The position numbers and the translations under genes were made by a program. The notes below the pieces were generated by a model. That model was not told the origin of the DNA. It saw nothing but the letters and a program-made list of their open reading frames with translations, and did no database searches. This document shows, one piece after another, positions 3,201-28,400 of a stretch of DNA of 64,000 bases. Every line of letters starts with the position of its first letter. Position 1 is the stretch's first letter. The stretch is from Lytechinus pictus (lineage: Eukaryota): the NCBI RefSeq assembly GCF_037042905.1, contig NC_087251.1, positions 30,940,001-31,004,000 of the forward strand, written 5' to 3'.

Positions 3201-4513
3201 AGACCCAGGAAATTCAAAGAAAAGTTGACACTTGCCAAACATCATAAAATTACTATATCTTATAAAATATTTGTGCTATCACGACGAATTTGATATCAAA
3301 CAAATGAGTATGTCATGCCCCTTCATCACATTGCTTTGTCATCAGGAGCTGAAAAATATTTAGGTGTCATTTCCCCCCAAAAAAATCTTCATATTTTAGA
3401 CAAATCAAAATAAAAACTTGACAAAAACATTTAATATTGGTGCTAGTTACTGCTCAACACAAACATTTCAGATTACACTTTTTTGTTCAGTGGTGACATA
3501 TCATGATAAAAAAATGTAATATAAATCATAGATTTGACATTCATATATTTCTACGAAACGATGTCTGAATATAATAACAAACAATATAATACATTTGGCA
3601 TGAATATTACTTTTTTTCTTCAAAGAAAATTCCACCTGAAATATACTTTAATCCTGATGGCATCCTAATAATGTGAAAGAGCTTAATATGCTCTTTCATT
3701 TGATACCAAATTCGTCATAGTATTTGCATTTCTGGAAATATAGTAAATTTTACGATGTTTGGCAAGCGAACAAATTTCACTGAATTCCATGGGTGTATGT
3801 AAACTTTTGGCCTCAACTGTAAATGCTAAAACTTATATCTTATTTGTCATCATTAATTTTCTAATCTTTGGTTTATTTTGCAGCTATGAGACCTAGCAGT
3901 AGATCAGGACCTGGGGGTGCACCTGATGGACCAATGGGTGGTCCTAGAACGTCATCACCAATGGTTACACCTGATGGTCAACGGGTAAGAACTAATCCCT
4001 TATTGTTGAGATACCAGTGGAACTGTGCCTAATTTTTCTTGGGGGGAGGGAACATTGTCATTATAAATGGAGAAAGTTAGCAGTACATTGTAGCTTCTGA
4101 AAGTTTGAGGGTGTTTTGTTAAAACCTGTCACAGTCATTATGTTATGTTACGTGGGTCTCTCTTTGTCTTTACTTGCATTATTGAATAAATATCTGCTAG
4201 TTATTTTATGTATTTTACAGTATTTTTATTGTAGATTCAGTAAATTATTACAGTCTATTTGTTTAAATTTTTATATTTTTCAATTTGAATATAATCATTC
4301 ATTCATTCATTCTTACCTTCATTGATTGATTCATACATTTATTTTCCTACTTGATAAAATTCAAACACTTTTCTTGAAATATGTAATTCACTGTGAGTGT
4401 CAAGAGGTCGCTTTAAAGTATCAAACGTAATTTATTTCATACTTGTGTTTTTTTTTTCTTTTCAGGGGCCTCGAGGTCCACCTCCTAGACAGCCTTCCAA
4501 TATGCAGGCATGA
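205..4513 (+). CDS. MIA3: TANGO1/MIA3-cTAGE5 family ER exit-site protein, 3' coding exons (gene starts upstream of window)
   Basis: GT-AG exons with consistent phases: 205-272, 745-827, 1188-1215, 1588-1616, 2204-2758, 3884-3984, 4466-4513 (TGA). Translation LSSRTAERELQEAKMEAASLRHRLTELE..PLVKP resembles the TANGO1/cTAGE5 CC2 end as I recall it ([25 protein letters not shown]..VIVKP), followed by a PPP-rich tail. Confidence 0.85.
2204..2758 (+). CDS. MIA3: TANGO1-like proline-rich domain exon (PPP motifs, Sec23-binding type)
   Basis: cacag| acceptor, |gttagt donor; ORF 2251-2763 rich in GPPPP/DFGP repeats. Confidence 0.85.
3178..3819. mobile_element. Tc1-like non-autonomous element, TA TSD
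   Basis: TA|CAGTTGAGGCCAAAAGTTTACATA ... TATGTAAACTTTTGGCCTCAACTG|TA; imperfect IR extends >100 bp; end resembles Sleeping Beauty-type CAGTTGAAG. Confidence 0.88.
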
Positions 4514-4927: not shown

Positions 4928-7902
4928 TATGTTGATATTTATAGATTGTGGTGGGTGTTTTACATAGAGTGAAGCCTGACTGAAAGTCATGCTGAAGTGC
5001 CTACGTGCACATATGGGTTATATACCACAGTTGGTTTCAAGTGTGACTTTTTGTCAGATTTAAATCTTTGTGAAACATTGCTGAGTGTTTATGAGGAAGA
5101 ATTTCAGTAGGGAAAATGAAAGTTTGATAATTTCATAATAATTGTAATGCAGATAATTTATTTAGTGAATTGAAATACGAGTTGCAACAATAGATGCATT
5201 TACCGCTGTGCTAAAATATTTAGATCATTTCCGTTGCATTATCTCTATTGTGACCACTATCATATTTGACAGTTCGTAATATTGAGTGATTTCAAGTACT
5301 TTGTTAATGTTAGTGTTGGTGTTAAGAGCATGAAGGAATGTTGAGAACTTAGCTTCAACATTTGACAGTCATTTGATGCCATTACCGATGGCTCAGCACC
5401 TTTGTGCAGTTACACAAAAAAGTTTTGATGATGAATGAGTGAGAAATTAGTGAGAAATGGAACTCAGATGTCATATAAAGACTGTAAAATCTGAAATTGC
5501 CTTGAAAAATCGAATGGAATATGTTATAATTGTCTAAGATGTATTAATTTGCAATGATTTGCAGTCATTTTTAACTGTAAGGATTATTTTATTATGTTCT
5601 CATTATCTGGAGATTTTGAATACGAACATGAACACTTAATTTGAAATTATTTCTCAATCCCCAGAGTTTTAGTGAATGGTGAAATTATGTGTAAATTGTC
5701 ATTCACTGTGATATTCTTTTCTGCAGACAATGTTCCACAAAAATACTTCATAATTCCGTGGTCGATTCTAACACCAACTTACAACACTGTATTTGAACTC
5801 ACCCACTCACCCAGTATGTTAAATTCAACATTTTAGGCAAGTGAGCCTTAACCTTGTTAACAGTAAGCTAGTCTATATTTATTTTTGATTGCCAGTATTG
5901 TCTTGAGGTAAATGATTTTTTTTTTTCAAACTTCTTGAGACTAGTTATTCATAAAGATTCATTTTATCATTCTCGTCTAATTATGATATTGTAATTTTCC
6001 ATGTAAGATATTTTTAAATGCATTTGGGCATGCACAATGCTTATGCTAGTTAAAGAATATAGTCCCTTTCTAGGAGTTACTCTGTGTATCATTTTGAAAG
6101 TGCAATGAAGATAGGTTGATCTGAAGTTGTTAGCATTATTTCATATCATTTGAAATTTTCTTTGTGAAAATGTGTTTTCACTGAGAATTTTTTGGAGGAT
6201 TTGAGTAGTTATTCAATCAGGAATGAAAGTTAATATAGATTACAAGCTTGCATTGAGACACTTGTAGAATGGTAGCCTTTTGACAAGACTTTTTTTTTTT
6301 ACCATTACACGATAATTGACAAAAAAATGGCCCAGTGATTAAGACTGCAAACAATGAATTGGGTGAGCCATTTATATATATATTGCCAGTTGAGTAAATA
6401 CTTGAATATTCATTACTCTGTCCTGGGGCCCACAATTACGACAATTGACCAATCAAAATGATCGTCTCTAACCCCTCCACAATGATATTCATTGTTAATG
6501 TCTATGGGTTGAGCTGTCATGAAAAATGGCTCCTAATTGGGTATTATCATATTGGTAGCAGATAAGAAATGAGATGCAAAAAGGCCACCTTGCTGTGCTC
6601 AGTAGTATAGTCTTTCCACTTCAGACCCTTTACATTATACAGAGGGAGTTCTTGACAAAAGGCTACTAGAATTGTGATGAAGCAATGGGTTATTCTATCA
6701 GACTACTTGATAGAACAAAACAGCAACCTCTATCACTCTATTTTATTTCTTAGTTGAAATTAAACTACTTACCCATTAAGTGCCAAATATATATTTTCCT
6801 GTTGTGCTTTCCTGCTCTACAATATTTCTGTATTCACTTGAGGCTAATCTTGAGTGCTAACATTTTGGATAATCTAGAATTATTAAATTTAGTTCTTAAA
6901 AGTTTGGTGCTCAAAATGTAATAATTAGAAATTGTTTGCAGCATAATAGAGAAATGGATAAGCACAATTTTTCTGTTTCTTACTCTTTCATCTTGATGTT
7001 TCTTTCTTTTTTGTGTAAATTTCCGGAGCATGGTATTGATAAAGCTATCAGTCAAAACTTCCCTGGACATGTTGAAATATTGAATTAAAGAGATGACATC
7101 TCAAAATTATACTTCAGATTTTGTTTTACTGGTCATTGTTTGAGGTGGAAGTTTATTTTGTGTAATAAACATGGTTTATGTTCAGTTGGTCTACTATGAA
7201 CTTGGTCAAATTGCCATTTGATTTACACTTGATCTAATACCAGCTTAGTCTGATTCCCATTTAGTCTAACTCTCATACCCACTTGGTCTCATTTCAATTT
7301 CGGTTACTTCTTATTTTTTAATTTGTCAAAATGAAATTTGATTCATAAACAGTTCATCTAACAATATAGATTAAGTGGTGTTAGACCACGTGGGTATTAG
7401 CCGAAATGGGGAGAGGCCAACTGGAAATCAGACAATGTGGTAAATGGGCAAAATAGCAATTAGACCAAGTGGTTAGTAGATGAACTGCTGGTTGTAGATG
7501 AAGTAGGATGAGACCATATGGAAATTAGATGAAGCGGATGAGGGCCAATCAACAATTTACCATGAATATATGTCCCAGAGTCTGAGACTGTTGATAGAGC
7601 AATTTGACCTTATACCCCCCCCCCCTCACCACCATTTGAATTTCAGTTGGCAATTTACAGGAATTTTTTATATTTTTAATTCCATTGAACCTCAGTAGCC
7701 TTACAGGATCTATTGTAAGTTGGTCACGCTGCATTTTTACTAACCCATTTTTGACTAGTCCACCCTGACAATAAGTTAGTTTCAACAAGAACATAGGTTT
7801 GAAAAAATATATATTTTTAATTTTTTTTGCAAATTGGAATAAAATGGGAAAAAATCTTGGTCTTTTAGAGATTTTGTGATTTTTTTCAAAAGTCTTATCC
7901 TG

Positions 7903-8183
7903 GGCCCCGTCTTACAAAGAGTTACGATTGATCCAATCAATCGTAACTCTATGGAAATCCATCAGTGTCATAAATTTTTCTACAGGAAATTTGCAAAATA
8001 TCCTTTGTATATATGAAGGAGATCACACCAAATTGTCAAAATTCAAGAAATCAACGAATTTATGGATATACATTCATATCTATATTTTTTTTAATAATAA
8101 ACATGCATTTTATATGTTGACTTTGCTGGCTTTCCATAGCTGCGATTGATTGGATCAATTGCAACTCTTTGTAAGAAGGGGCC
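7903..8183. mobile_element. PIF/Harbinger-like MITE, CTG TSD
   Basis: CTG|GGCCCCGTCTTACAAAGAGTTACGATTGATCCAATCAATCG ... CGATTGATTGGATCAATTGCAACTCTTTGTAAGAAGGGGCC|CTG. Confidence 0.85.
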
Positions 8184-8387
8184 CTGGTCAGTTTACAATG
8201 AGGAAAACAATGTCACACTATTCTGTATTTTGTTAAATGAAATATTTATTTGATGATTTAAAAGGGACTTCCCCTACATCACAAAAGATAATGATTAAAA
8301 TGATTTTTTATATTTTTCATGAAGTATCAAACCCAATTTTGACATTATAAGGGGCCATCTATGTGCCCTCCCCCCACCATGCTCCAG

Positions 8388-8538
8388 GGGTCAGTTTCAT
8401 AAGGAGATACAATGATACTAACTTTGCCGTTATTGTAACTACCATGGAAACCTTGATTATGATTGGCTGCTGAGCCTCGTTACCATTGTTATTCACAATG
8501 ACAATTATACCGTACTAGTAACTTTGTGAAATTGGCCC
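8388..8538. mobile_element. PIF/Harbinger-like MITE, CAG TSD
   Basis: CAG|GGGTCAGTTTCATA ... TGTGAAATTGGCCC|CAG. Confidence 0.65.
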
Positions 8539-8799
8539 CAGCTTCCTACACCTATCAAGAGATAATATTGGATTTTTTAATTGAAACTAGATCTTGAATT
8601 CAAGCTCACAAAATTATTTTAATAAATTAATTTGACAAGATCCAAACCACATCCCCAAGATTCAAATGCAAAGTTCAAGGAAATGTCAACAAAAATTTAA
8701 TCAGCTTGTAATTGCAAACCATATGTACCTTTCAAAATTAAATTTCCATCATGATAGTACGATGATAAATCAATTTCTATTAAACATATCAATGCACAA

Positions 8800-9345
8800 A
8801 AGATGGTCAAGTGCACCCCAACAAAAAGTTTATTTCAATGAATAGAAAAAAATTAACAAGCATAATGTTGAAAATTCATTAAAAATCAAATGTAATATAC
8901 AAAAAAGATGTGATATTTTAAATTTTACTTATTTTCACAAAACAATTATTTACACATTTCGGGTGATAAGCAAATGAGAGCTGATGATATACAGTCCTTT
9001 GGGGGAAGGGTATCATATTTCAATTTTTGCACATTTGACAATTAGGAAGCTCTTCATGAAATCACAGTTGGTTTAAAAGATGGGAATTCCACATGTTCAA
9101 GGAGGAAAGAAACCTTTTTTCGATTAAGAAGAGAATTAGACTTTTCTATTTATCAAATATACAAAAGAAATAGTGAGTGGGTATGTGGCATTCCCTCATT
9201 TGCATTCTGATAAAGATGTACATATATATGTTATGTGAAATTAAGTGAAACTTATATTGTAATTTTTTTGGGGGGTCTTTTTAACACAATTTTAATCTCA
9301 ATTGTGATTGATGTTTCTCTATTCATTTAAATCAAAGTTTTGTTG
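8800..9345. mobile_element. Degenerate dispersed DNA-transposon-like repeat; related fragment at ~14575-14922
   Basis: CAAGTGCACCCCAACAAAAAGTT start, degenerate inverted end TTTAAATCAAAGTTTTGTTG; 14575-14922 shares internal motifs and ends GGACTTGGCCTTT. Confidence 0.45.
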
Positions 9346-9949
9346 ATATAAAGAGATGGAGTGAGAGAGAGGAGGGGGGGGGGGTGGTGAATAGATTGAG
9401 ATGTAGACACAGTATTTTATATATCACCCCCCTCTTTAATGCCCCTCATTTTGTTTTTCAATTATTGGGGGTAAATAAAAATATAGTTTGCCAGGTTAGA
9501 TCAATGTCCCTTAATGCTTACTAGTTTATTCATATTTTCTCACTCTAAAGCTCCCTGGTAGCTAGACAAGCGCTTCAAGTGTATTTTCCATAGAGGGTTT
9601 GTCACAATATGGCACAACTCATATCACGGCAAATAACAGAAAGATGGGGGGGGGGGGAGAGCGAGGCGAGAGGCCTGATGAGATGGGACAGGATCGAGAC
9701 TGGAACAGTTTGTAGATCCTATGAAGTATTATTTTCGTACGGTGGTATGACGGGGAAAACCCCCTTATCCAATGATTGAGCAATGAGGAAATGACCGCAA
9801 ACAATGTGTATTACCCGCGATGATCATAAATTAACTTTTATCGAAATTTTGGTAATATAAGTTGTTGTCTTTTTTAGCTATTACAACTTGAATTAGCTTG
9901 CTAATATTTCATGTTGCACAACTGTTTGTAAGTGCCACGCCTTTTTCTG

Positions 9950-10313
9950 CAAGTTTTCCAAGTTCGAAGAGCGAGGTGATGCAGGGCGGCGCACGAGATA
10001 AGAGGCTAAACGCCCTCTTGAGTTCTAAAATTTACAGTAATTCTGGACGTTCATCGTATTTTCGGGAACGATAATGGTTACACTTTCTGCATGTTTTGAA
10101 GCTTTTTGAAGAAAAAGTAAGTATTATCGAGACGCTAAGTATTATCTTCGGATCGGTAATTTAAATTCTATCATATTTTCTTTTGTTTGCAGGCAAGAAT
10201 TTCTTGATTTGAATGTAAAATTTTACGTTTTCCCCAGGTAGCTAGCATTTTGTAGCAATCGAAGTTGCACCAGACAGACACCGCACTACACATGCGTGAC
10301 GTCACGCGCTGCA
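9950..10313 (+). promoter_or_regulatory. Probable BIRC6 5' region: CpG-richer leader, 5'UTR intron (donor 10117, acceptors 10192/10237), CRE palindrome 10294-10307
   Basis: CpG enrichment relative to flanks; aa|gtaagt donor; ttttgtttgcag and ttttccccag acceptors; GCGTGACGTCACGC. Confidence 0.5.
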
Positions 10314-10491
10314 ATGGCTGCAGCTGTGGGATGGAGTGTTGAGGAAGATGGAAGTCTTTCTGTTGGTGAGCAGACGGTTGGGATTGCTTATCACCCAAGG
10401 CTGAATACTGTCCTGGCAGTTACCACAGACCCTAGCATCAAAGTTTTGGATGTCAATTCTGGTGTTATTCTAAAGAAATCGTCTTTATCAG
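10314..10491 (+). CDS. BIRC6: BIRC6 first coding exon
   Basis: ATG in gcaATGg context; MAAAVGWSVEEDG..IAYHPRLNTVLAVT..IKVLDVNSG; donor g|gtgaga. Confidence 0.9.
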
Positions 10492-13400
10492 GTGAGAATT
10501 CAATGACAAATGTGAAGCAAAGATGACATGAAAATGGATGACAAGGCAGGTCAGGTCAGCCGTTGGGACGGGTAGCCTTAAAGTTTGGAGAGTGAAAATC
10601 TTGTCTAGTTTTTAGGTGTGCATTGAGATGTACATGGGGCACCTTCCTCACGTCAATGCGAGGTTATTGCCTTCTTAAAAATAAAACTGATTGGCATGGT
10701 TGGGGACCTAAACTTAATTAAACTCTAAGGCCCGTATTCTGAAGTCGGGTTTAACTTAAACTCAGGTTTAAAGTTGTGGTTTAAGTATGGACAGCCAATT
10801 GTTACATAATCACTAACAATAGAGATATCATACTTCCGCTCATTCGGCTCTCAAATCATTCATAATTGTGTAGGAAGTATAAATAGATTATTGTCTTCAC
10901 CATCGATGAATCAGGAAAGAGCACAGTAAACATAAGAAACACACAACTTAATAAAAATGTTGATACTTTTGGCTTCCCATACTTAAACCACAACTTTAAA
11001 CCTGAGTTTAAGTTAAACCCGACTTCAGAATACGGGCCTAAGTCTAAAGCTACGGCCTATGCACTTTTCAGATGATAAAAGCTATGACAATTTAATATTT
11101 GAACAGATCAGACTCTGAATAGTGGAACATATTCTAAAGATCATTACCAAAGAACAAGAATTGTTCATCTCACTCTGCATGTCAACAGTAGAGGCGCACG
11201 GCCAATATGGGAGGCTCTCTCCAATAGGGGAGACAATCTCCCACATTGGAGACTTGCTTTGCAAAAGGACAAAAGAAACAACACCAACAAAAGCATGATT
11301 TTTTTCCACCCAAAATTTTGTCTCGCTGAGGTCAGAAGCCCATTTGTTTTGTGTGTGATTGACAACAAAAAGTAGACGGTGAATTTTTAAAGTAGACGGT
11401 GAAAAGGGGTAATTTTTCATGAGGAATCTGCTTATCACATTTTTATTTGCCGCCAAGTTAATCCTTTTGCAGCAAATGTAAACAAAGGAAATTGGACTCC
11501 AAAACTGGAGACTGTCTCTGAAATTGGATACCCAAATTCTTTACGAAAGTCTCTGATATTGGAGATAATCTCCCACATTGGAGACAGTCTCCAATATTGG
11601 CCGTGCGCCTCTACTGGTCAAAAATCCGAGTTTTCAGAGAGATGATATTTTAATTATCCTATTTGTGAGTGTTTCAATCGGTATGTATTTTACAACAAAT
11701 AAGAGATGAACCATATCTGACTGCTGTTGCCTCATTGAATTTTGTAAAGGGGTGCAAGTAGATTCATTTTCATTTCCTGTCAAAATGAATGAACAAGAAA
11801 GTATGGCCTTTGTTTTGCACCTAATTCCAAATAGTGATCAGTCATTCATTATTTCTTTTCAGCCGGTATTATGCATTTTTGCAAACAATTTTTTTATATT
11901 GGATCTGACTGGTGTTGCCTCATTGACTTTTGTACAGAGTTGTAATTAGATTCATTTTTCATATTTCATTTCCTGTCAAAATGAATAAAACAGATGAAAA
12001 GGATCGGAACTTTACATGAAATTAAAGCATATCATCTCAATTCTCTGAAAAAAAATAGGAAATCAGTTATGATCATTGAATCATTGCGAGTTACACAGTT
12101 ACACTTCAATGATCACAGAAAGGTATGAAAATATGTATTATCGCACTTAAATAATGAATGATAATCATTAATTTATGACTGATCATAATTTGCAACTACC
12201 GTATTTTCCGGTGTATTAACCGCACCTTTTTCCGTCGGGGAAAACCTCGAAAATGGGGGGTGCGGTTTATACACAAACACAGAGAAATCCGACCTCAGAA
12301 ACTTGATTGACTTGACGAAAACTTAGCATATATAATGAATGTGTGACATGTTTGAAACGTGGACTTGTAAAAAGAATGAAATAAAACTCACCTTACATCA
12401 TCTCTGTTTTTCTCTTTTCATAATTTAATGATTTTTGTCGTGGCGTTCGCGGGACGGCCAATCCATGTTTGGTGAGCGCTCCTCGGTAGCGCCTGCCAGT
12501 GCCTGCTGGCATGGCTGGCCGGCGCTGGGCGCGCCGCAGCCTAGCGACGGAAACTGAAGGCGGAGCGTCGCGCAGTACCGTAGACGTATTTAAGATTTTA
12601 CCCTCTTCTGTCCCAGAAAAAAAAATCCCAGAAAGAAACAGAAATCTTGCTCGAGGCCTTTCTAATGTGCAGCAGCTAACTAAACTTGAAGACTGTACGT
12701 GTTGAAGCGCCATCTACCGGTATTGATTGCTTTTGCAGCAATGGAGAACGTCGCCAATTAAGTCAAGGAAGCAATGATTTTAGGCCTTATCTGCAGTTGA
12801 TAATTTATATTTTCTTCGTGCATTTATGAAAATATAATTTTACATTGAATTTGAGTGATTTTTTAATTTGAAGTAAAATATTGATTTCATATGAACAACG
12901 TCGACTCGAATTGGATATAGAAATAATTGAGAACAATTATATTATTATTATTATTATTGCTAGCGTAAACTGGTATATGTAATAATTCGAGCATAAATAA
13001 TATGTCTTTTTTTTTTTTCTTGGACACTGTCCCGGCCCGCGATAAGTTTTAGTATTTTTGGAGGACACCTAGTGGCATCCCTGGAGTGTGCATTTAAGGC
13101 CTATTGTAGGCCCCCAACAACAAATTTTGTCACTACGCCATCACGCGAATTTTTTTTACCGCACCGCTCGCTGACTTTTTACTTTCAAGTCTTGCGCATC
13201 TTTTGAGACCAAATTTGCGATGCCTGGGTGCGCAGTTTTGAAATTACGCAACATTTTGTACGTGCATGTCGGACCCAAAATTGCTCCAAAACGTGATTCC
13301 ATGTTCAAGGTCAATGCAAATTGTGTTTTTCAACAAAAAATCATAAATGTATGATTATTTTTACTTTTGTTGGTTCAAATGGATTTATTTTATGCTATTT

Positions 13401-16400
13401 ATGATCGCAAAAGAGCCCCGACAAAGTTATTGGAAAAAAACAATAAAAAAAAAAAGTTAAAAAAAAAAAAAAAAAATACAAATTAAAAAAATAAAAAAAC
13501 CCTATTAAATTAGATTTTTTGCAATTTTTTGTGGATATTATAAAGGTAAAAATTGATACACTCACCAAAAATTAGCATTCTACTAGCTTAATAAATAAAG
13601 TCAAAGGCAAAAACATACAAAAAAACAAATTTAGGGCAAATTTCATATGCTCATTTGCATAATTAATTAATTAAATAATATAAACAATTAAGTTTTGTCA
13701 CATAAATTTGATGCAGAAGTACATTAAAGTTGCTGATAGTACATGTACACTTAATTGCATGTAAAATCAAACGCTCACAAATAAGCGGAATTCTACTACA
13801 CAGTCGGCTCGCCTGAGTGGCTGTATAATAGAAAACATAAAGTTCAACAAATCCACTTTTATTATTTTGAACTTGAAAAAAATAAAGCAAATAGGCTAAA
13901 ACCATGTACATGTAATATTACGGTTGTCAGTAGTTTTAGTATAATTCTTAATTGACCATGCAGTGTTCCAACTTACCCCATACCATGTTCCAACTTACCC
14001 CGTATAGGGTATAAGTTGGAATGCTTGCGATGGTCTTGTTCAAGGTGGATTTTTTTCAGTAATCATCATAGAGTTAAAAATTCTATGGGGTACATTTGTA
14101 GCCCCTAGATATATGAGCATAAGTTGATATATTGTTGGCTTCGTGAATAAAATCTATTTGGATTTTACAGCCATTTTTGTTGAAAATGTTCCAACTAACC
14201 CCTGTCTCCCCTACCTTGTACAAATAACTCCTGTGTACACTGTACATAAGTTATGTGAACTACATTTTACTCGCAAGCCCAGAAGTGTTTACATCTCATA
14301 TCATACTGCTAGATAATTAACCAAGAAAAATGTTCAACTCATAAGTAAGCACAGGTACCCCATCCTTTGTCTATGCATGAGTTAGCTAGGAATGTCCCCA
14401 AAATAGAGCAATATTTTGCTTTGGTAAGATTGCACATGTGGATGTGCTTGTATGAACTGGGCTGAAGCATTGGTGTTTCATTGTTATCTTTTACTAAGAT
14501 TTAAATTGTATAAACTAGGTATCAAATATGTAAGAACTGTAAGAAAGATATAGATTAGAAATATCATTTTAAAGGGAAATTCTTCATGTAAATGTCATTG
14601 TCAACAACACACAAATATGACCAAATTAGACTGATTGCTGCCTGATACCATACAACAAAAGAGAGAAAAAAAGAAAGAAGTGGATGACATCTTTGGTTTC
14701 CCTCATTTACATACTTGACTGGGATGTGCATGATGTAGCTGTTTTGAGAAATTTTAAAGCAAAACACCAAATTGTAATAACTTTGTTATTTTACATACAT
14801 GTACTGTACAAGCATTCTTCATTTATAAAGTTGATTTGATTTATTCAAATCAACTCTTTTTTTTTAAGGGGGGGGGGGAGGAGGGGGGATGGGGGGGGGG
14901 GAGGGGGATGGACTTGGCCTTTGAGAACAAAGTAAAGGTCACATTCTGAGATAGTTAATACCAAAGTTGAAAATATCATCCTCCTGGCTCCAGACCCTAC
15001 ATGAGTTGGAATAAATTATCAAAATTAAAATTATACTATTAAAATGCTGCTTTATCTTGAAATAAGCTACCGTAAGTAACGGACTATAAACCGCACCCGT
15101 GGATTAACCGCACCCCCAACTTTGGACTAAAAGAAAAAAAAAAGAAAAAAAAAATCCTTCTCACATTATATTTGAGGTACGAAGAAACAAAAACTAAGTT
15201 AAATATTTCAAAGTATCCAAAGAGATTACCGATATGCGGAAATCTGCTGTTCTTGATCAATTCATCTACAAACGTTTGCAAGAAAGAAAGGTCCCGACAA
15301 TATTGGCCACTTACACACTCACTCACCTCACAGTCACAGTGTACACACACACAGCACTGCCGTTCTTGTACATTGCAAACTACGATACGGTACCAGTAGT
15401 ACATCTTATCAAATAATGATCTGTGTCTTTCCCGGCGTAGGAGGAAGAAACATTCACATTTCTTGCATCACAAACTCACAATCACTTTCAGAATTTGTCT
15501 AGCATTCGATGTCTTAGCATGAATTTTGGATACGGGATTACAGGAAGGTTCAAGAAACAAAGAAATTTGCATTTTTTACAGTTGTTTTTACGGCTTCGCG
15601 CCGTCTCTCTCGTGCGTGGTGTACATGGTATCTTATGAAAAGCAAACGGGAAAGAAAAAATAAGCTGGCGCGAAATGGGACTTCGGAGGGGATCGAGGGT
15701 TAAAATGAATAGCGCCAGCTTAAGTCGCACTATGACCACAATACAACGCAAGCTACCTCAGCTCACTCAACTCTCGATCTTGCGCTCGCTCAGCTGTGAC
15801 AAAATATTACCGAGTATGCTTGGCGTCTCTTTGAACTTAGCCAGGGAACTTCGCTGCTTTGAACCGAGAATAAAGTCGAAATTAGTGTCATGAAGGTGGG
15901 TGCGTTCAGATCGTAATAATCGCTTCTCATACCCCTCTAAACGACATTGCCCTGGGCGGCTACGCCCGGCCACTCGATGTGTTGTGAACTGGCAGACGTC
16001 TTACATGTTCGGGAGGGGTTACGACGGGCTGACTCAGACCCGTTACCGTGGATAAACCGCACCCCCAACTTTTGCTTCTATCCCGCTGAGAAAAAGGTGC
16101 GGTTAATAGACCGTTACTTACGGTATATATCATTGGGGGCCATGTTGTTTTTTCTGTTGTCTGCAAATTCGTAGCAGAGTACAAAATGGCCATACCCATA
16201 CACCTGGAATTTAATGTTTCGGGCCCGCTCAATAATATTATTTCTATAGCTCTGCTTGGTTGATTAAAGGTCTGAAATGTGCAATATGATATAGAACTGG
16301 ATAAGAAAATTTAGATACTGAAGTGTTTGATATTCTCATAGCTATTGGTGACACTAGATTTCTTATGTATTGCTATATTTTAGCGGTCTGGAAGAAATTG

Positions 16401-19400
16401 CATCAGAACCGACAGCATCAGTTGGTCACTGCTTTGATTCAGCCCTAATCGAAAGGGTGATTCCATGACATTTGCTCCGGCGACGATTGCTCCGATGGAC
16501 AAAAAACTCTATTGCAATCCTCATTTTAAACCTATGTCCTCTGAGATATTAAGACCGAAGCAAATGTCGTGTCACCCAAAAGGGCACAAGAAGATCCAAG
16601 TCCAGTGAGAGGGGCATTAAGGCCAATCAGTAGGGTAAAAAGGCCTTTGTCATAGCCTTTGATTATTTAAAAGTCCTGATTATTTTTTGCTGCCATTTAC
16701 ATGTACAGTGCATCTAACAATTTTATGTGTGAATATTTAACATTTACAACACATTTCAATCTGAGGTATATCTATCATAAAGTTCAATAAATATCTTCAG
16801 TACCCATTTCATAATATTACCTTTCTGCTATTTTCTTTCTTGATGTGTTTGTTAATTTTGAGAAGCTCCTGCTAACAGACATGTAGAATGCCGTTATCTG
16901 AGTGGATCAGATCAATTGTTCTTAACTGATGGCTACTCTGTGGGATTGAGGAAAGATCTGGGTGGAGTTCTCCTGCTAGACTCTGCTCTACAAACCTCGG
17001 TCACTGACACCAACAATGATGTCATGGTTGAAATACCTTATTCTGAGGTGAGGAAATGAATTTTATACCAGCTATCGGGCTTCACCATGCTAAAAAAAGC
17101 CCCGGGGGGGGGGGGGGGGGGGGGGTACTCACGAAATCAGGCATTGACATGATCCACAAGAGAATAATATAAGTATTCATATATTTAGAATTTCTCAAGT
17201 GTATGACATAACAACCTCATTGACATAATCCACAAGAGAAATCCTATTCTCTGAATGCACAATTAATGGTATATTTGATAACAATAATCATATGAGGCGC
17301 CGAATGTACCAATATTACATAGAACAATTATTTGTTATATAATCATTATTTATTAAATAATAACTATTATTTATATATAATTTACATTTTATTTGTAAAT
17401 AACTACTATTATATAAAATATCATTTCTAATTATTTATATATAATTCCAAGTAATACTTCATTATTTGTAAATAATAATAGTTCGACATTCCATTATTTA
17501 TAAATAATGATTATTTGTTTTTCATTATTTATAAATAATGATTATTTGTTTTTCATTATTTATAAATAATGATTATTTGTTTTTCATTATTTATAAATAA
17601 TGATTATTTGTTTTTCATTATTTATAAATAATGATTATTTGTTTTTCATTATTTACAAATAATGATTATTTGTTTTTCATTATTTATAAATAATGATTAT
17701 TTGTTTTTCATTATTTATAAATAATGATTATTTGTTTTTCATTATTTACAAATAATGATTATTTGTTTTTCATTATTTATAAATAATGATTATTTGTTTT
17801 TCATTATTTATAAATAATGATTATTTGTTTTTCATTATTTATAAATAATTTGTTGAGTTTTCCATTATTTATAAATAATGATTATTTGTTAAATAATGAA
17901 AACGTCTACTTCATTATTTATAAATAATTTTTTCGAGTGCACCATTATTCTCATTATTTATAAATAATCATTATTTAATGTTCGAGTTTTCAATTATTTA
18001 TAAATAAAGATTATTTGTTAAATAATGAAATATCTACTTCATTAGTTATAAATAATAATTTAGTTTCAATATCCCATTATTTATAAATAATCATTATTTA
18101 TAAACAATTTTTACAGTTTGCCATTATATACAAATAATCATTACTTATATACAAATAACCATTATTTATTAAATAATGCCATTATTTATTATATAATGCC
18201 ATTATTTATTAAATAATGGAAAACTCGCTATAACATGCAAATGTGGGACCGCCCATGATATGAATATTCATGATGCGATTTCCTTTTTCGTGATTTTTCT
18301 TCACAAATTTTTGTCCGTTTCCTCTTCATAATGACATTTCTTGAAGCAATTTTCTAGGGATATGGTCTGATTGTAATATTCTTTATTTTCTATATAACTT
18401 CGTCTTCGTAGAAATATCAAAAAGTGTAATTTTATACGATTTTTCCTACAGTTCACAATTCCCATAGGCGCGCGTGTATCGTAGGGACAACCGGTGAATC
18501 GACGGAGTGCTCTTCATCGAAATACTACGTTGGTTGGTCCCCGGAAGTGGCGGGCGGAATTTAGCCTGAATCCTCGATGGAAGTCGATCAAGTGCATATG
18601 AGCTGAGAGAGTGAAATATCAGTGTACTTGTACAGGCCCTTCTACTTTTTATAAATATTTCTTGTTGCTTTTTTTGTTAAGTTAATTTTTCCTGGTGTAG
18701 AGATAAGTTTCAGTTCTAATAATGCACTTCAAATACATTTTGGAGTGTCTGTTTGAGGCGTTTGGGGCGATTTCACCCTGGCCCCAAAATTCTCGCAATG
18801 ACAATACGGGGGCATGATGACCCCTAAATTTTTAAAAACTTATTTTTCTATTGAAAATTATCACAAAATTCACCAAAAGTGTGCACGAAAGCCTTCGTAT
18901 TTCACTTTTAAAACTCCAAAAAGTGCCCAAATGATAAGCTTGGTCGCTTCGCTGTGTCGCTTTCAACTTGAGAACGTTTACGCGTCTGCTTCCCCCCCCC
19001 CCCCCTCCTCCGAAAGAAATTCTGTATACGGCCATGCTCTAAAGAGCCTGGCACATTGATTTATGTATACTTTCATTTTCATTATTTTTATCTCATTATC
19101 AACATGGCCTTACGCAGAATTTTTTCCAGGGGGGCCGGGGCCGGAGCATGACGCGCGTAAACTTTCTCAAAAAAATCTTGAAAGCGAGACAGCCACGGGA
19201 CCAAGCCCAAATGACAAGCTTGGTCGCTTCGCTGTCTCGCTTTCAACTTGAGAACGTTTACGCGCGTCTGCCCGGCCCACCCCCCGAAAGAAATTCTGTG
19301 AACGGCCATGCTCAAAAGAGCATATATGGCACATTGATTTATATGTACTTTTCATTTTCATTATTTTTATCACATTATCATCATGGCCTAGTTTTACACA

Positions 19401-22400
19401 GAATTTTTACCGGGGGGGGGGGGGGGGGGGAGCAGCTAGGACGCGCGTAAAGTTTCTCAAAAAAATCTTGAAAGCGAGACAGCGACGCGACCAAGCTCAA
19501 ATGATAAGCTTGGTCGCTTCGCTTTTTCAAGATTTTTATGAGAAAGTTTACGCGCGTCCTGCTCCCCCCACCCCCCCCCCCCCGGAAAAAATTATGCGTA
19601 AGGCCATGATGATAATGAGATAAAAATAATGAAAATGAAGTATACATAAACCAATGTGCCAGGCTCTTTAGAGCATGGCCGTATACAGAATTTCTTTCGG
19701 AGGAGGGGGGGGGGGGGATCGAAGCAGACGCGTAAACTTTCTCAAGTTGAAAGCGACACAGCGAAGCGACCAAGCTTGTCATTTGGGCACTTTTTGGAGT
19801 TTTCAAAGTGAAATACGAAGGCTTTCGTGCACACTTTTGGTGAATTTTGTGATAATTTTCAATAGAAAATCATCATGCCCCCGTATTGTCGGCATTTTGG
19901 GGCCAGGGTGAAATCGCCCCAAACGCCTCAAACAGACACTCCAAAATGTATTTGAAGTGCATTATTAGAACTGAAACTTATCTCTACACCAGGAAAAATT
20001 AACTTAACAAAAAAAGCAACAAGAAATATTTATAAAAAGTAGAAGGGCCTGTACAAGTACACTGATATTTCACTCTCTCAGCTCATAAGCACTTGATCGA
20101 CTTCCATCGAGGATTCAGGCTAAATTCCGCCCGCCTCTTCCGGGGACCAACCAACGTAGTATTTCGATGAAGAGCACTCCGTCGATTCACCAGTTGTCCC
20201 TACGATACACGCGCGCCTATGGGGATTGTGAACTGTAGGAAAAATCGTATAAAATTACACTTTTTGATATTTCTACGAAGACGAAGTTATATAGAAAATG
20301 AAGAATATTACAATCAGACCATATCCCTAGAAAATTGCTTCAAGAAATGTCATTATGAAGAGGAAATGGACAAAAATTTGTGAAGAGAAATCACGAAAAA
20401 GGAAATCGCATCATGAATATTCATATCATGGGCGGTCCCACATTTGCATGTTATAGCGAGTTTTCCATTATTTAATAAATAATGACATTATTTAATAAAT
20501 AATGGTTATTTGTATATAAATAATGATTATTTGTATATAATGGCAAACTGTAAAAATTGTTTATAAATAATGATTGTTTATAAATAATGGGATATTGAAA
20601 CTAAATTATTATTTATAAATAATGAAGTAGATATTTCATTATTTAACAAATAATCTTTATTTATAAATAATGGAAAACTCGAACATTAAATAATGATTAT
20701 TTATAAATAATGAGAATAATGGTGCACTCGAAAAAATTATTTATAAATAATGAAGTAGACGTTTTCATTATTTAACAAATAACCATTATTTATAAATAAT
20801 GGAAAACTCAACAAATTATTTATAATTAATGAAAAACAAATAATCATTATAAATAATGAAAAACAAATAATCATTATTTGTAAATAATGAAAAACAAATA
20901 ATCATTATTTATAAATAATGAAAAACAAATAATCATTATTTGTAAATAATGAAAAACAAATAATCATTATTTATAAATAATGAAAAACAAATAATCATTA
21001 TTTATAAATAATGAAAAACAAATAATCATTATTTATAAATAATGGAATGTCGAACTATTATTATTTACAAATAATGAAGTATTACTTGGAATTATATATA
21101 AATAATTAGAAATGATATTTTATATAATAGTAGTTATTTACAAATAAAATGTAAATTATATATAAATAATAGTTATTATTTAATAAATAATGATTATATA
21201 ACAAATAATTGTTCTATATAATATTGGTACATTCGGCGCCTCATATAATCATGCACTATGCTTTAATTGCTTGTTGGAGCTCAACAAATTGTTTACATTA
21301 GAGCATCTGTAACAATGACTACTTATTTTTAGCTGCTTTGCAGATTTATACGATTCTCATTTTCTTGTAATCTCTGTCAACCTGTCAAATAAGCTGACAG
21401 AGGTGCTGTAATATCAACAGTTTTTTGGACAGAAGCCTTGTGAATGACTGCACTAATTCATACACACATGTACATACTTTTATCTGTTTTGAATTGCAGG
21501 CAAGTCAGCTTCTGGCATGCCTCAGGAAGAACAAGATTGCCAATTCAGAGACTGTCATGGAGAGTATCGAAGAAGAATTGGAACGTTACAAACTTCCAAA
21601 TGACCATGCTTACCATAAAACAACTAAGGTAACGTACCCCAATTCATGGATTCCCTTTCATTCATTGCTTGTTTGGATAATATGGGCATGCCGAGGAGTT
21701 TGCATTGTTAAAAGGAATATTATAATATGAAACCATATAGAAGTAGATCAAGATGTTTTTGTGTTAAAGAATTAGGACTTAGGATTGGTATCCTTTATTT
21801 TGTTTGTATTTTGTCACCATGTAGACAGACCCCAGTCCAGATAAAGAAAGTCTAGGTACAGGTACAGGTGATGGCTGAAGCAAGTCCAAGTGTATTAACC
21901 CGTCTTGTCTAAAACTTGTTTTCTAGTGGGCTACTGTTCATCTCCGCCTACCCCATGCTACCCTCAAGAAAGTCATCAACGCCCTTGTGGTTGAGCTAAG
22001 TCGTACCCACCAACGGGTTTCTGCTCTTCCAATCTGTACCGCTATCCTGGATCGTCTTCAGAGACTCTACCCTGACGGACAGGAACCCTTGGTTGTAGGG
22101 GGAGATAACACCATTGAGAAGTCCCAGATGTACAGTGAGGCTACCCGGAGACAGACATTCGCTCAGTGGCCCCACATGGACTACAAGTAAGAAAACATTC
22201 CACTCATAACCTTGAGGGCAATTCCATGAAATATGTAGTTTGGATCCCCTGTATATGGGAACTTCCTAAAAAAGTTTTCTATTTCATATGTAACACTTCT
22301 AATGCTATCTGGCTTGAGCAGTTCATGGAATGAAGTAAGAATGGTGACAAATGGGATTCAGAGGTCTGAAAATGTGGATTTCTTTATGGAAATGTCATTT

Positions 22401-25400
22401 AGATGATTGAATGTTTTTATTTTGTTTTGAAATGAGAAGTGATATGAATGTATGTGTATCAAAAGATATACTGTATACATATATATTTTTGTTATTACAG
22501 GTGGGCTCTCCCTGAACCTATGGCTCAAGCTGGCTTTTACCATCAGGTACATATTCTGTGTTATGTTCTTGTCTTTTGTATTACATGTATGAATATGTCA
22601 ATTTATAATTTGTTATAATTCTAATTACTTTGTCAATCTATATATTTTTTGCAATGTTAAGGACATGTTTTAACTTGTGTATATATTTTTATTTTGTTAG
22701 AGATCATATTGCAAAAGGGGTAGGGGGAAGGTGGGATAAGTTGAGCATAGGGGCAAGTTGAGCCACCACCCCCAGGCCAATAATGAATGAGTCAGACATT
22801 GTGGTGGTGTCATGTATTGATGACCCATTGCATAACCCCTAACCCCACCACATTGTTTTCAACTTTGAAACAAAAAGTACTTTTTTAGAGGGAAAAATAC
22901 AAATTTCGGCCAAAAAAGTAAAAAAGGGTGTGAATTAGATAAGTGCTTTTTACGCACACACATCTTTAAATATAATAAAGACATAAGAACAACATTGTTA
23001 GCCCAGGTGTGGATCCTCACTCTTGTCATAGTCTTTTACATGATGGATGCATACGAAATGTGTGGATGCGAAATTATCGCATAAAGTTTGGACTGGGGTA
23101 AGTTGTGCCAGCAAACATGGGGCAAGTTGAGCCATGGTAATTCTTATGGTAATGTATATATAAAAAGCAAACAAACCTTAAAAAGCCATCGATATGCTGG
23201 CAGAAAGGAGCAAATTTATATGACTGTTCTCTTCCTTTTAGAGGATGTTAGTATTTATAGAGAATTAGCAAGTGAAAAGACTTAAAATAAAAAATTGCAT
23301 GCTGGTTCTTCCCCCATACATTTTGTACATAGTTTTTGTGGCTCAACTTACCCCAGAAGGTGGCTCAACTTACCCCACAGATGGGGCAAGTTGAGCCATT
23401 TGACATCTCTTTTTTCAAAGGTGAAAATTACTTTCAGTGTGGGGGTAGAAAGTTATATATAGGTGAGAAATATTTCAGAAGAATGAAATTTTAAAGCGAG
23501 GTACTCATTTCTACAAGATTATTAATCATATCAATTCTAACATGCAAAATTCAAAAAGTGTCGCAACTTACCCCGCCTTCCCCTACTTTTTTTACTGCTT
23601 ATGTTATTCTCATATTGTTAATATGAACTTATTCATTTATCATTATTTTAGTCTTACTGCCTCTCATGATATGTTATGGCAAGTAAGTTACAGTTTGAAA
23701 AAACATGTTGTGATTTGTCAGATTTTAATCTTGATTACCTTGTACCTTTGTTGTTTACAGCCCTCTTCAATAGGTGATGATAGAGCTATGTGTTTTACCT
23801 GTAGTGTGTGCCTTGTTTGTTGGGAACCAACTGACGAACCTTGGTGAGTAGGATTGATTTGTGTAATTTTTTTAACATTGGTTACCGGGATTGTTAACGG
23901 AATTTTGTTTCAATTTTTCAAAATATCACTCAAGACTAAAAATCCCCCCAAACATACAAGTGCTCTCTTTTTTAGAAGATTCTGAGCCGATGATGATTTT
24001 TAAAGGATAAATGGAACCATGGAACCATGTGTTCTATCATAATCATTTAAAGTTTCCACTTCTCTCATTACATTCAGGTCAGAACATGAGAGACACTCTC
24101 CCACTTGTCCCTTTGTGAGAGGAGAACCAACCCACAATGTTCCTTTCTCTGTTACCCTCTCAACCGGCCCAGCTCATTCACACAGCAAGACTGAAAAGGT
24201 AATATGTCCGTCTTTAATCGTTGAATGGTGTTAAATATTCTGTATCCCAGTAAGTAGCAGAGGGGTATATATCTCATGAAGAAAAGCCTTTCTATATAAA
24301 TATTATTATCTTTAATTACCATGATTCAGTAGACCATGCACTTCAGTACAATATTGCTCAGCAAATATTGGACATAGGCCTGGTGATAATTTATTAGATT
24401 TTGGTGCATTGTGCAGTTCTGTTCATCTTATGTTAAGTTATAGAAAGTAGAAGACAAAATAAGTCAATTCTTAAGTTATAGAAAGTAGAAGACAAAATAA
24501 GTCAATTTCAAGATATTGTTATTAAGTTTGAGAAAGAGAAGGACAGAGAGATTTAATAACATTTCATACATTCATACATGTATGAGATAGCTCCATCTCA
24601 GGTGACATTTATCCAAGATCTGGTGTAAAAATCTTTATCTAGTTCACAGTGAATTTAGTTTATCTAAATTGATCCTATTTTATCAGAGTCATGAATGTTA
24701 TCAGTTTCATTGTTTTGATACCTGTGATTGATTGATTTGAATAGATATCATGTGTTAGTGAGGGCAACACGTCTTCTTTAATGGCAACCTCTACCGAGTC
24801 TGGTCGTGTCTGCATCTGGGAAGTCCACGAACAACTGAAACTAGCCACCAGATTCATCGTCAACCCCAAGGATCCCATCTTCAAAGGACAGGCACCCGTG
24901 ATCATGGACACAGAACCAGTGAAGGCTGTTAAGCAGGCATGGATGACACCCGAGGTGCCGGTGTCTGGTACCAGTAGTAGCAGTAGCTCTACCATTAGTA
25001 CCTCGAGTAGTACCAGCAGTGGAAGCACCGGCCATGTTCCTATGAAGGATGAACTAGCACCAGTCAATAGGTAAGCCTTTCATATCTTGTGCCTCTGCAT
25101 TGCAAAGTGGCAGCAGAAAATGGTATGTGTCTACAGTGGAGATTGAGTCTTCCTCCAAATAATCACTGCATCCACATGTCGGCCTCTTAGGCTCGAATTC
25201 ACGGAGGTGGTTTTGAAAACCCACCGTTGAATCCCATGGTTTATGCAGATTTCCTGTATAAATTATGCTTAATTCACTGCGTATCGGGCGTGTGTATAAA
25301 AAATGTCCAATGCTGATGCGCGCTTTTGTCACAGTGCGCCAAATTGACGCCTGTTACCATGGTTAGATACGCTATTTTATTCATGAGTCCACTGTTTGAA

Positions 25401-28400
25401 GAGTGGACTCATTAATTCAAAATAGTGGACTCATGAATAAAATAGCATACTTAACCATGGCAACAGGCGTCAATTTGGCGCACCGCGACAAAAGCGCGCA
25501 TCAGCATTTGACATTTTTTAATGTACATAGTAAATAAGCGTAATTTTTACAGGAAATTTGCATAAACCATGGGTTCAACCGAGGGTTTTGAAAACCACCT
25601 TTGTGAATTCGGGCCTTACAGTCATTGTCACTGAGAGAAAGGAAGACAACAAAATCAGCTTTTGTTGTCACTTAAATGACAAAATTATTTTGTATTCACA
25701 AATTGTCCACTTTTGAATAAATAGGTAGTAAACTTTTTACACAGTGTAAAGATTTGGTCATGTACATAAGTTAAATCTGAAATAAATTCAATTGTTAATA
25801 TTTATCGCAGTTGTTTTTTAATGTCTTACCTTGTTACCTTTTGCAATATTCATACAATAAAATGTAGATCACAGATAATCTGTAATGCCCCTCAATTTGA
25901 GTGTGGTCACATATGATTGAAGAATGCATATGTGCTAGTGTGGTCACATGCAAACATTTTCATGCAACCTAATATTTGTGCAAATGATGAGACACATTCT
26001 AATGATTTAAAGTAAACACACATGTCTGTTAATGTTTGATATTGACAGTGATTTTTATTTTCTGCTTAGCCCCAAGGGACTCCCTGAGACCTCATCTAAG
26101 ACAGACGAATTGAAACCAGACCCTTCAGTTGAAGAATCAGAAAGAGGTAAGGTCATTGTTTACATTCATTGGTATTGGTGTCTTTGATTAAGCTTTTGAG
26201 CACATCAGAACATTTCAATAAAATTATTTGATTGTAAATGAAAATAATCTCATTGCTTTACAATAATATAGATCAATGTCCATATTTTTGTAAAACTGCA
26301 GGATTAAATTTATTCAAATAATAATGTTCAGTTTTTGTGTAGCGCATATCATATTACCTTCACACTCTGGCAGCCTGGCTGTAATGGTGTATTAAAGTGA
26401 TTTTTTAAATGATGATTGCAGAAAAAGGAGCATTTGGTTCTCTGGAGGTGATAGAAGTGAGTGGAGCCTGGAAGAGCTCGGACAATGAAAAGCCGGAGTG
26501 TAATGGCCCGCTAACTGCTAATGAAGGAATTCCAATGCACAATACTGGTAAAAAGCTCTTATTTTATTTTATTCTTCATTTGCCTTTATGCAGTGATTGC
26601 TATGTAATATTTTATGCCGTTGCCAAAATGCTTGTTATATTGAGAGTTTCTTAATTGTCAATGTGGGAAATATGTTTGTAGGAGAGCAAATATTGTTGGG
26701 TCATGAAACATGTTTAGCATTCAAATAGATATTGTGGTATGAAATTGTAATTTGAATAAAATAAATGAACCTGGCACAAGTAAATAGTGCATCGCAAAGT
26801 ATAAGAGATTTTAAGGTGACAGTTTCATTACTAATAAAGGTGTAAGATGTATTTAAGGGAAACAAATTAATGAAGTTGCCTTTATCTTGGTAAGGCTAAT
26901 GTCATACATGTATCAGTTAAATTAAGGTGCTCTGCATTATTTTCCCAAATGTAACTTCTGAAGGTTTTCATGGTGAATGAGAATAGTGTAGTGAGCTTCA
27001 AGGTACACCATGTATCTTTTGTGGGAAATTGTTGGTCCTGAAAAGGACCACCCAAACTCGTTTCGACAAGTGTGTTCTTGTCGTCTGAAAACTACTGCAC
27101 TATTTTCCCAAATCTTGTCCATTTTAGATTGATTTAATGTGTAAGCTTGATGCAGTGATGTATGCAAGTTTATTATACATGTGAGACATTTGTGATAAAA
27201 AAGGCAGCACTTCTCTATTTGATGCCAGGACACTATTACCCTACTATTGTGTTTGTAAATGCTAATCACCGTGATGATTCCTTCTTCTTGTTAATACCAG
27301 TACCTGCAGTGGGAGATGAGGAACCCTCAGATTCTGTTGCAGTGTCTGCTCTGGGTATGCTCAATGCCAGCAAACTACCAAGTATAGCAACGATAGGAAC
27401 ACCAGATATGTCTTTCCCTTGTCTTGTGGCTGGAGTTAGTATACGAAATGAAGATCAGGAACAAACAAGTAACAGTAAAGAGGAAGTTAGAAGCAACAGT
27501 GTGATAGAAACAGATAATTTCATTGATTTAGATAGACCAGGAGGTGATGAAAATGGAGATGATGCTGGCACAGGTGGTGCTCCACCAAAGAAACTGAAGT
27601 TTGCTGATGCATATCTTGGAGATTCAGTTGATGGGGATGTCGATGAGAAAGCAGGGAATAAAGTGGCGTATGTGAACTACTTGGTTGTATACTGCATGAT
27701 GTACAAGGGAAAGTTGTTACCGGTCGTCAAGAAGCCTGGTGAGAAAGCGTCATCGTCCTCGGGCTTTCACAAAACGCAGAGCATGTACTTTTCACTTTCG
27801 CAAGAGACGCAGAAGCCTTATTTGGATGATGATGAACTCGGATACAGTGACCTTGAAGATCCACTAAATTTCCAGTTCTCTCCCATGGTGAACAACAATC
27901 CTCCACCTGTTGCATCTGGTTCAGGGTCTGTGGTGTCAAAACAGGTGTCTATGAGTGTGAATGCTGTTCAGTGTGTAGAGCTCCCGGAAGCAGTGCAAAC
28001 AAATGATTATGTGGTAACGTCTGTCAGGACCTCCCTGGATGAACAGTATCTGATGGTCGTCTTGAGTCCTCATTCTGGGAAGATGTTTGAGAGAGAAGCA
28101 ATAGATGGTGGTGTGGACAAACAAGAGAAGGTAGATCCTGTAAGTATAAGTACAGAGTCTACAACGGAATCAGTGCAAAATGACTTGAACAAAGGAAGCT
28201 CTTCTTTCATGATGATGAGCAATGAAGATTGTGGTATAGGTGTAGACGAGGTCGATACCGGGCCTTGCTCTTCAGGAACAGATGATGCTGATTCTAGGAC
28301 TAACCACCAACATTTTGTGAAAGACGGACCTCCCAAAGCATCATCTGGAGGTTTTCTAGTCATCTACAAGTTAAAGCGAGCTGGCCAGATGATATCCATC

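Follow-up and report, generated by a model that had tools for sequence, protein, structure and literature searches.

The 64,000-nucleotide stretch of Lytechinus pictus DNA analyzed here (the window; contig NC_087251.1, positions 30,940,001 to 31,004,000 of the forward strand) carries exons of the BIRC6 gene, one of whose introns (17048..21499, plus strand, 4,452 bp, GT..AG) contains a large palindromic element with the build of a foldback transposon. An earlier note, made from the sequence alone, had already placed the element in BIRC6, and this placement holds: exons on both sides of it, in the right order, match solved BIRC6 (E values of 6e-21 and 1e-11), and Pfam BIR and BIRC6 domains lie downstream of it. 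The exon that follows the intron (21500-21628, with the next splice donor at 21629) is present in a spliced contig of the public sequencing run X13; two downstream exons are matched by this contig, one with no difference and the other with 1. The intron would measure 491 bp if the element and one copy of the flanking duplication were removed. The insertion makes it ninefold longer, and BIRC6 pre-mRNA would be expected to carry a near-perfect stem of 1.65 kb.

In the reading that we prefer, the whole element (no strand assigned) occupies 17291..21245, measures 3,955 bp and has the termini TATGAGG...CCTCATA. Its arms, 2,206 bases on the left and 1,738 on the right, are reverse-complementary around a 9-nt loop at 19498-19506, and a perfect 8-bp direct repeat, ATAATCAT, lies at 17284-17291 and 21245-21252; all of these coordinates, first given in the earlier note, were reproduced. 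A global alignment of one arm against the other yielded 1,696 matches, 36 mismatches and 480 gap columns (97.9% identity), and over 17291-19115 the arms are 98.6% alike, with 23 mismatches in 1,647 aligned bases (1.4%). The gap columns represent 128 bp of an array of 31-bp units, one 20-bp unit, two inner-domain segments (6 and 23 bp), a small number of 1- to 6-bp indels and one entire 290-bp inner unit present on the left side only. The innermost 86 aligned bases contain 13 mismatches (15%). Arm divergence was rejected as a measure of insertion age, since it is generally known that the terminal inverted repeats (TIRs) of transposons are not reset at each jump.

Both arms follow the same order, from a 198-bp terminal segment through an array of 31-bp units (11 on the left, ∼7 on the right) and degenerate AT repeats to ∼700 bp of non-repetitive DNA. 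On the left (plus strand), the terminal segment (17291..17488; 17% GC) differs from the right arm by 1 mismatch and contains three degenerate copies of a palindromic core. It is followed by the array (17489..17850), with 11 full units and a perfect 20-bp palindrome in most of them, and by the degenerate AT repeats (17851..18218), which are spaced by 17 to 49 bp and share the palindromic core of the array. The left outer domain (17291-18300) holds 23 occurrences of this core in its 16-bp form (at most 2 mismatches), and the 60 kb beyond the element hold none. The left inner non-repetitive domain (18219..18927; 38% GC) matched nothing in Pfam, nothing in Rfam at gathering level and no phage. Its counterpart on the right (19786..20465, minus strand) does not have the 6 bp and 23 bp mentioned above, and the right degenerate AT repeats and 31-bp array (20466..21047, minus strand) are shorter than those on the left by the 128 bp (∼four units) and the 20-bp unit. 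The right terminal segment (21048..21245, minus strand) reaches high summed depth in run X2 and recurs letter for letter in runs X1 and X8. Together with the GC-richer inner units, this layout agrees with the earlier description. In Rfam, 5 hits to microRNA models scored far under the gathering thresholds and were set aside as generic hairpins; a search of the inner arm against phage sequences gave no match. The single match in an exact scan for an inner 20-mer, to a 66%-GC contig with 24 bases in common, was taken as chance.

Three units make up the center, with lengths of 271, 281 and 270 bp and joined by 9-nt spacers; every one of them is in itself an imperfect inverted repeat, and two run inward from the left and one from the right. 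Unit 1 (18937..19207, plus strand) is preceded by a spacer (18928-18936) with the same sequence as the 9-nt loop, and unit 2 (19217..19497, plus strand) by another at 19208-19216. The loop at the symmetry axis (19498..19506, no strand) is thus itself one of the inter-unit spacers. Beyond it lie the inverted unit 3 (19507..19776, minus strand) and an inverted spacer (19777-19785). Unit 3 is 94% identical to unit 1 (outer part, 99%; inner part, 87%), and unit 2, the extra unit that is unpaired in the right arm, has 87.5 to 88% identity to units 1 and 3. At the central junction, 17 nt resembling a unit start are followed by sequence resembling a unit end, which is 6 bp shorter. For the central 961 bases, the predicted fold had a z score of -78 relative to 20 shuffled sequences, and the predicted structure branches, units 1 and 2 having a side hairpin between them. 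The picture of one giant hairpin without a unique middle therefore stands in part: there is no unique middle, yet the extra 290-bp unit on the left and the modeled fold indicate that the center is not one unbranched stem. We also considered whether the 9-nt spacers prove that Mutator-type duplications of 9 bp surround the inner units and rejected this, since tandem duplication yields the same pattern.

No transposase is evident within the element, as had been reported: the longest stop-to-stop frame encodes 162 amino acids, and Pfam scans of 10 of the 12 element frames of at least 60 amino acids gave no match. Within the 64 kb there is no second copy of the element, the sole match being poly-G, and the exact terminus pattern had 0 matches in contigs from metagenomes, viruses and prokaryote genomes.

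Copies elsewhere are revealed by public runs, 24 of which were compared with 15500-23500 by shared words; the best share was 0.26 and none reached half, small shares not being evidence. Four of these runs (X1, X2, X8 and X13) were aligned to 21050-22850, a segment in which the element is represented by its last 196 bp only. In X2, 21 contigs share the sequence up to 21245 and then continue into flanks that vary (agreement, 0.41), and summed depth, which is not copy number, reaches 5,097 to 14,546 on the terminus and 77 on the adjoining flank. One X8 contig, identical over 196 bases, stops at 21245, and one X1 contig, identical over 197 bases, departs after 21246 into a different flank; the absence of flank cover in these two runs is not evidence that the flank is absent. 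Dispersal in multiple copies, seen in X2 and X1 where the terminus is joined to different flanks, is thereby established for the terminal 196 bp, in keeping with the proposal of a foldback family. We thus conclude that the element is a genuine multi-copy, non-autonomous DNA transposon of the foldback type.

Depth in X2 on the outermost 60 bp is 2.4 to 2.9 times that further in, and X13 covers mainly this outermost part, which hints at sister families that share just the very end; the partner element may be among them. The terminus copies in X2 differ from the window at 21115, 21133 and 21171 in all or most contigs, those in X1 and X8 are identical to it, and these differences mark lineage-specific subfamilies.

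In one further X2 contig (record 21), the match to the right flank starts at 21245 and extends over 543 bases, with 33 differences, and the 125 letters before it do not fit the element. It most likely represents the empty site that the earlier note had suggested looking for, and the element is therefore likely to be an insertion. That the family is young, as also proposed, is plausible, given the identity of the terminal 196 to 197 bases in X1 and X8 and the apparently empty site in X2.

Since the 8-bp repeat starts and finishes with AT, several readings of the ends are self-consistent: an 8-bp duplication with ATGAGG ends, 6 bp with TATGAGG, 4 bp with ATATGAGG, and GAGG or TGAGG ends with 2 to 4 bp. 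The first of these had been chosen originally, placing the element at 17292-21244. Public contigs favor the second. An end at 21244 would predict ∼71 X2 contigs departing there, if each place is listed apart, and 21244 is not among the six X2 places listed, the lowest of which has 4 contigs. We conclude that the original ends were probably one base short and that the best boundary is 17291-21245, with TA..TA termini and a perfect 6-bp target-site duplication (TSD), TAATCA, at 17285..17290 on the left and 21246..21251 on the right (neither with a strand; 17284-17291 and 21245-21252 if the duplication has 8 bp).

This corrected boundary, which yields TA..TA ends and a 6-bp duplication, points to the IS3EU/GingerRoot superfamily. 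TA..TA ends are invariable in complete IS3EU families, which are described as one lineage with GingerRoot, and their TSDs usually measure 6 bp (PMC10045372). For GingerRoot, TA..TA was found in 72 of 77 intact copies and 6-bp TSDs in 72, with TIRs of 100 to 150 bp in Selaginella (PMC6839031). The annotation of one sea-urchin genome includes IS3EU (PMC11316814), whose structure and function have been called largely unexplored (PMC11934779). The element shares with this group the TA..TA termini (TAT...ATA, whose outermost base may instead be an invariant base of the target), the TIRs, the existence of non-autonomous members and, in the preferred reading, the 6-bp duplication. Fungal IS3EU elements have TIRs longer than 30 bp and end in TAYGG (PMC12730594); the TAT of the present element fits TAY, whereas its end as a whole reads TATGA. 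Judged from its termini, membership in IS3EU is probable, and we consider it likely that the element is a non-autonomous DNA transposon of foldback build that an integrase-like DDE transposase (IS3EU/GingerRoot type) mobilizes in trans. The partner, which the earlier note thought might be undescribed, is accordingly more likely to belong to a described superfamily than to be a new kind of enzyme.

Several observations weigh against this assignment. The 6-bp duplication comes from a single locus, where it is nested in the 8-bp repeat, and the empty site is equally compatible with 8, 6 and 4 bp. Formally, an 8-bp duplication always edged by A...T would give identical data. An end at 21245 also predicts ∼7 contigs at 21246, and none is found among the places listed (P ∼ 0.18); the loose contig ends are taken from 18 of 168 entries, in which neighboring places may have been merged. 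Published IS3EU/GingerRoot TIRs measure 30 to 150 bp and surround a coding middle, in contrast to the modular, repeat-bearing arms of 1.65 kb that here fill nearly the whole element, with no transposase in this copy. None of the 56 frames of at least 100 amino acids in the window has a transposase domain in Pfam. Finally, the majority of foldbacks that have been classified are related to Mutator or P and have duplications of 8 to 10 bp (PMC4079207, PMC3169594, PMC5225508).

The strongest competing explanation retains the ends at 17292-21244 and the 8-bp duplication and assigns the element to a transposase of the Mutator/Phantom, hAT or P type, as for most classified foldbacks. The direct repeat is perfect, the same empty site is predicted, and duplications of 8 to 9 bp in Muta1 (PMC5225508) and of 8 to 10 bp in Tm1 (PMC3169594) and Tetris (PMC4079207) all accompany repeat-bearing TIRs. 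This explanation nevertheless requires A as the first flanking base in nearly all copies. The 21 X2 contigs, X1, X8 and both ends in the window do carry this A, at a background frequency of A of 0.30, and such a fixed first base would set the element apart from Muta1 and Tm1, which show no target sequence preference (PMC5225508, PMC3169594). We regard this explanation as a whole as rather unlikely.

Far less probable is that the palindrome or its center is an artefact of assembly or of chimeric reads. The public-run alignment does cover only 196 bases at the right end, and the best word share is low. A chimera would nevertheless copy one arm exactly, and the arms differ at 23 of 1,647 sites and by indels that include whole repeat units, which argues against an assembly fold-back. 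Both ends, moreover, return to intron DNA with a perfect duplication, and the BIRC6 exon order continues across the element.

By the rules for their ends, Sola and ISL2EU elements have GAG or RR ends and 4- or 2-bp duplications. A GAGG-ended element at 17294-21242 with a 4-bp ATAT or 2-bp AT duplication (Sola or ISL2EU/PHIS), or one with ATGAGG ends and an invariant AT duplication of 2 bp, is very improbable. These readings are self-consistent within the window, and the X1 contig matches through 21246. However, the probable empty-site contig begins at 21245, a position predicted by the nested readings of 8, 6 and 4 bp, whereas GAGG ends would predict 21241 or 21243, so that the Sola/ISL2EU pattern is not what is found; a fixed AT would carry the shared sequence to 21246 in all copies, whereas the X2 contigs depart at 21245; and all of these readings require a chance tandem repeat at the target. 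A Polinton/Maverick derivative, suggested by the 6-bp duplication (the TSD length of Polintons; PMC10045372, PMC6839031) and by the long TIRs possible in that group, is hardly credible, since Polinton ends begin with AG (PMC6839031) and those of the element with TA, and Pfam detected no polymerase or integrase remnant.

In its architecture, the element has the long modular TIRs with a tandem outer and a non-repetitive inner domain by which foldbacks are defined (PMC4079207, which also describes Tetris). Like FB, Tetris and Galileo, it combines long TIRs, a terminal segment, an outer domain whose tandem repeats vary in number and a non-repetitive inner domain with the absence of an open reading frame. 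Tetris has TIRs of up to 1,735 bp and 8- to 10-bp duplications and has been proposed to be a Mutator element (PMC4079207), and Galileo is a P element (PMC3688188); in contrast to both, the ends of the present element point to IS3EU and its center is an array of hairpin-like units. Tm1 (PMC3169594) and Muta1 (PMC5225508) resemble it in carrying subterminal tandem repeats, more of them at one end than at the other, and in their many non-autonomous derivatives; they differ in having 8- to 10-bp duplications without sequence preference and, for Muta1, TIRs of 145 bp.

The resemblance to FB and to the sea-urchin TU elements, noted before, holds for architecture only. TU elements possess an outer tandem domain with a 15-bp unit, an inner non-repetitive domain, no long open reading frame, arms of less than 1 kb and a defined middle segment, and one studied copy reportedly has a thrice-repeated unit in its middle. 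By comparison, the present element has an outer unit of 31 bp, arms of 1.65 kb and no unique middle. We know of no enzyme ever found to move classical TU elements. The literature searched yielded nothing on TU beyond citations (PMC3879986).

For transposition by IS3EU/GingerRoot, the following steps may be envisaged. A partner transposase encoded elsewhere would pair both ends, cut beside the terminal TA and join the ends to a target whose strands are cut 6 bases apart. Additional transposase binding sites may be provided by the 16-bp palindromic cores of the outer domain, by analogy to Galileo, whose repeats were shown to be binding sites (FB repeats were not tested; PMC3688188). Slippage or unequal exchange would change the number of repeat units. 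More speculatively, the mirror structure could have arisen if a strand, at a junction within the array of 290-bp hairpin units, turned back on itself and copied one arm, eliminating any coding middle. A strand could fold back in this array because the start of each inner unit is complementary to the end of the preceding one. Such a snap-back origin hinges on a single diagnostic base plus a small deletion, and the inner part of unit 3 is equally close to unit 1 (86.7%) and unit 2 (87.4%); both points speak against it.

IS3EU is known mainly from Repbase entries. In print, the foldback build has been tied to Mutator (PMC4079207) and P (PMC3688188) transposases. A link between IS3EU and foldbacks was not found in the literature searched, which did not extend to Repbase, Dfam and most subscription journals, so that such families may already be deposited. 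Both "IS3EU" and "foldback" occur in PMC8268682, the latter in the reference list only, and PMC5844308 reports IS3EU similarity within a repeat and does not contain "foldback". If our reading of the ends is true, it names the enzyme class to be sought, provides a candidate binding site and makes the question of what mobilizes sea-urchin foldbacks testable. A wider proposal appears to us possible though doubtful: that IS3EU/GingerRoot constitutes a third route to foldbacks beside Mutator and P and moves a whole class of sea-urchin foldbacks, possibly including TU, that the palindrome arose by snap-back in a captured hairpin array, and that the 31-bp unit represents the first DNA site to be identified for an IS3EU transposase.

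The window contains a number of other repeats. In the BIRC6 intron, just left of the insertion and beside a 21-base run of G, a direct repeat of ∼21 bp, its copies 75 bp apart, occupies 17145-17240. To the right of the element, the left end of a very abundant repeat begins at 22724, with X2 summed depth of up to 1.1 million and 42 contigs loose before this position. A 642-bp inverted-repeat element at 3178-3819 has CAGT ends and TA on both sides, and we take it, by the rule for its ends, to be Tc1/mariner-like. Another, of 310 bp at 10729-11038, has GGCCCG ends and a 3-bp TAA duplication and is by the same token presumably Harbinger/Tourist-like. A third (11186-11616, 431 bp) has CA..TG ends and a perfect 5-bp GTCAA duplication. 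Two short inverted-repeat elements, at 7899-8187 and 25297-25520, have arms that are 83% and 92% complementary, respectively. Intronic tandem arrays lie at 62461-63704 (period of 163 to 192 bp), 44452-44761 (115 bp) and 39931-40247 (160 bp), the last of which has a diverged inverted copy near 35652-35824.

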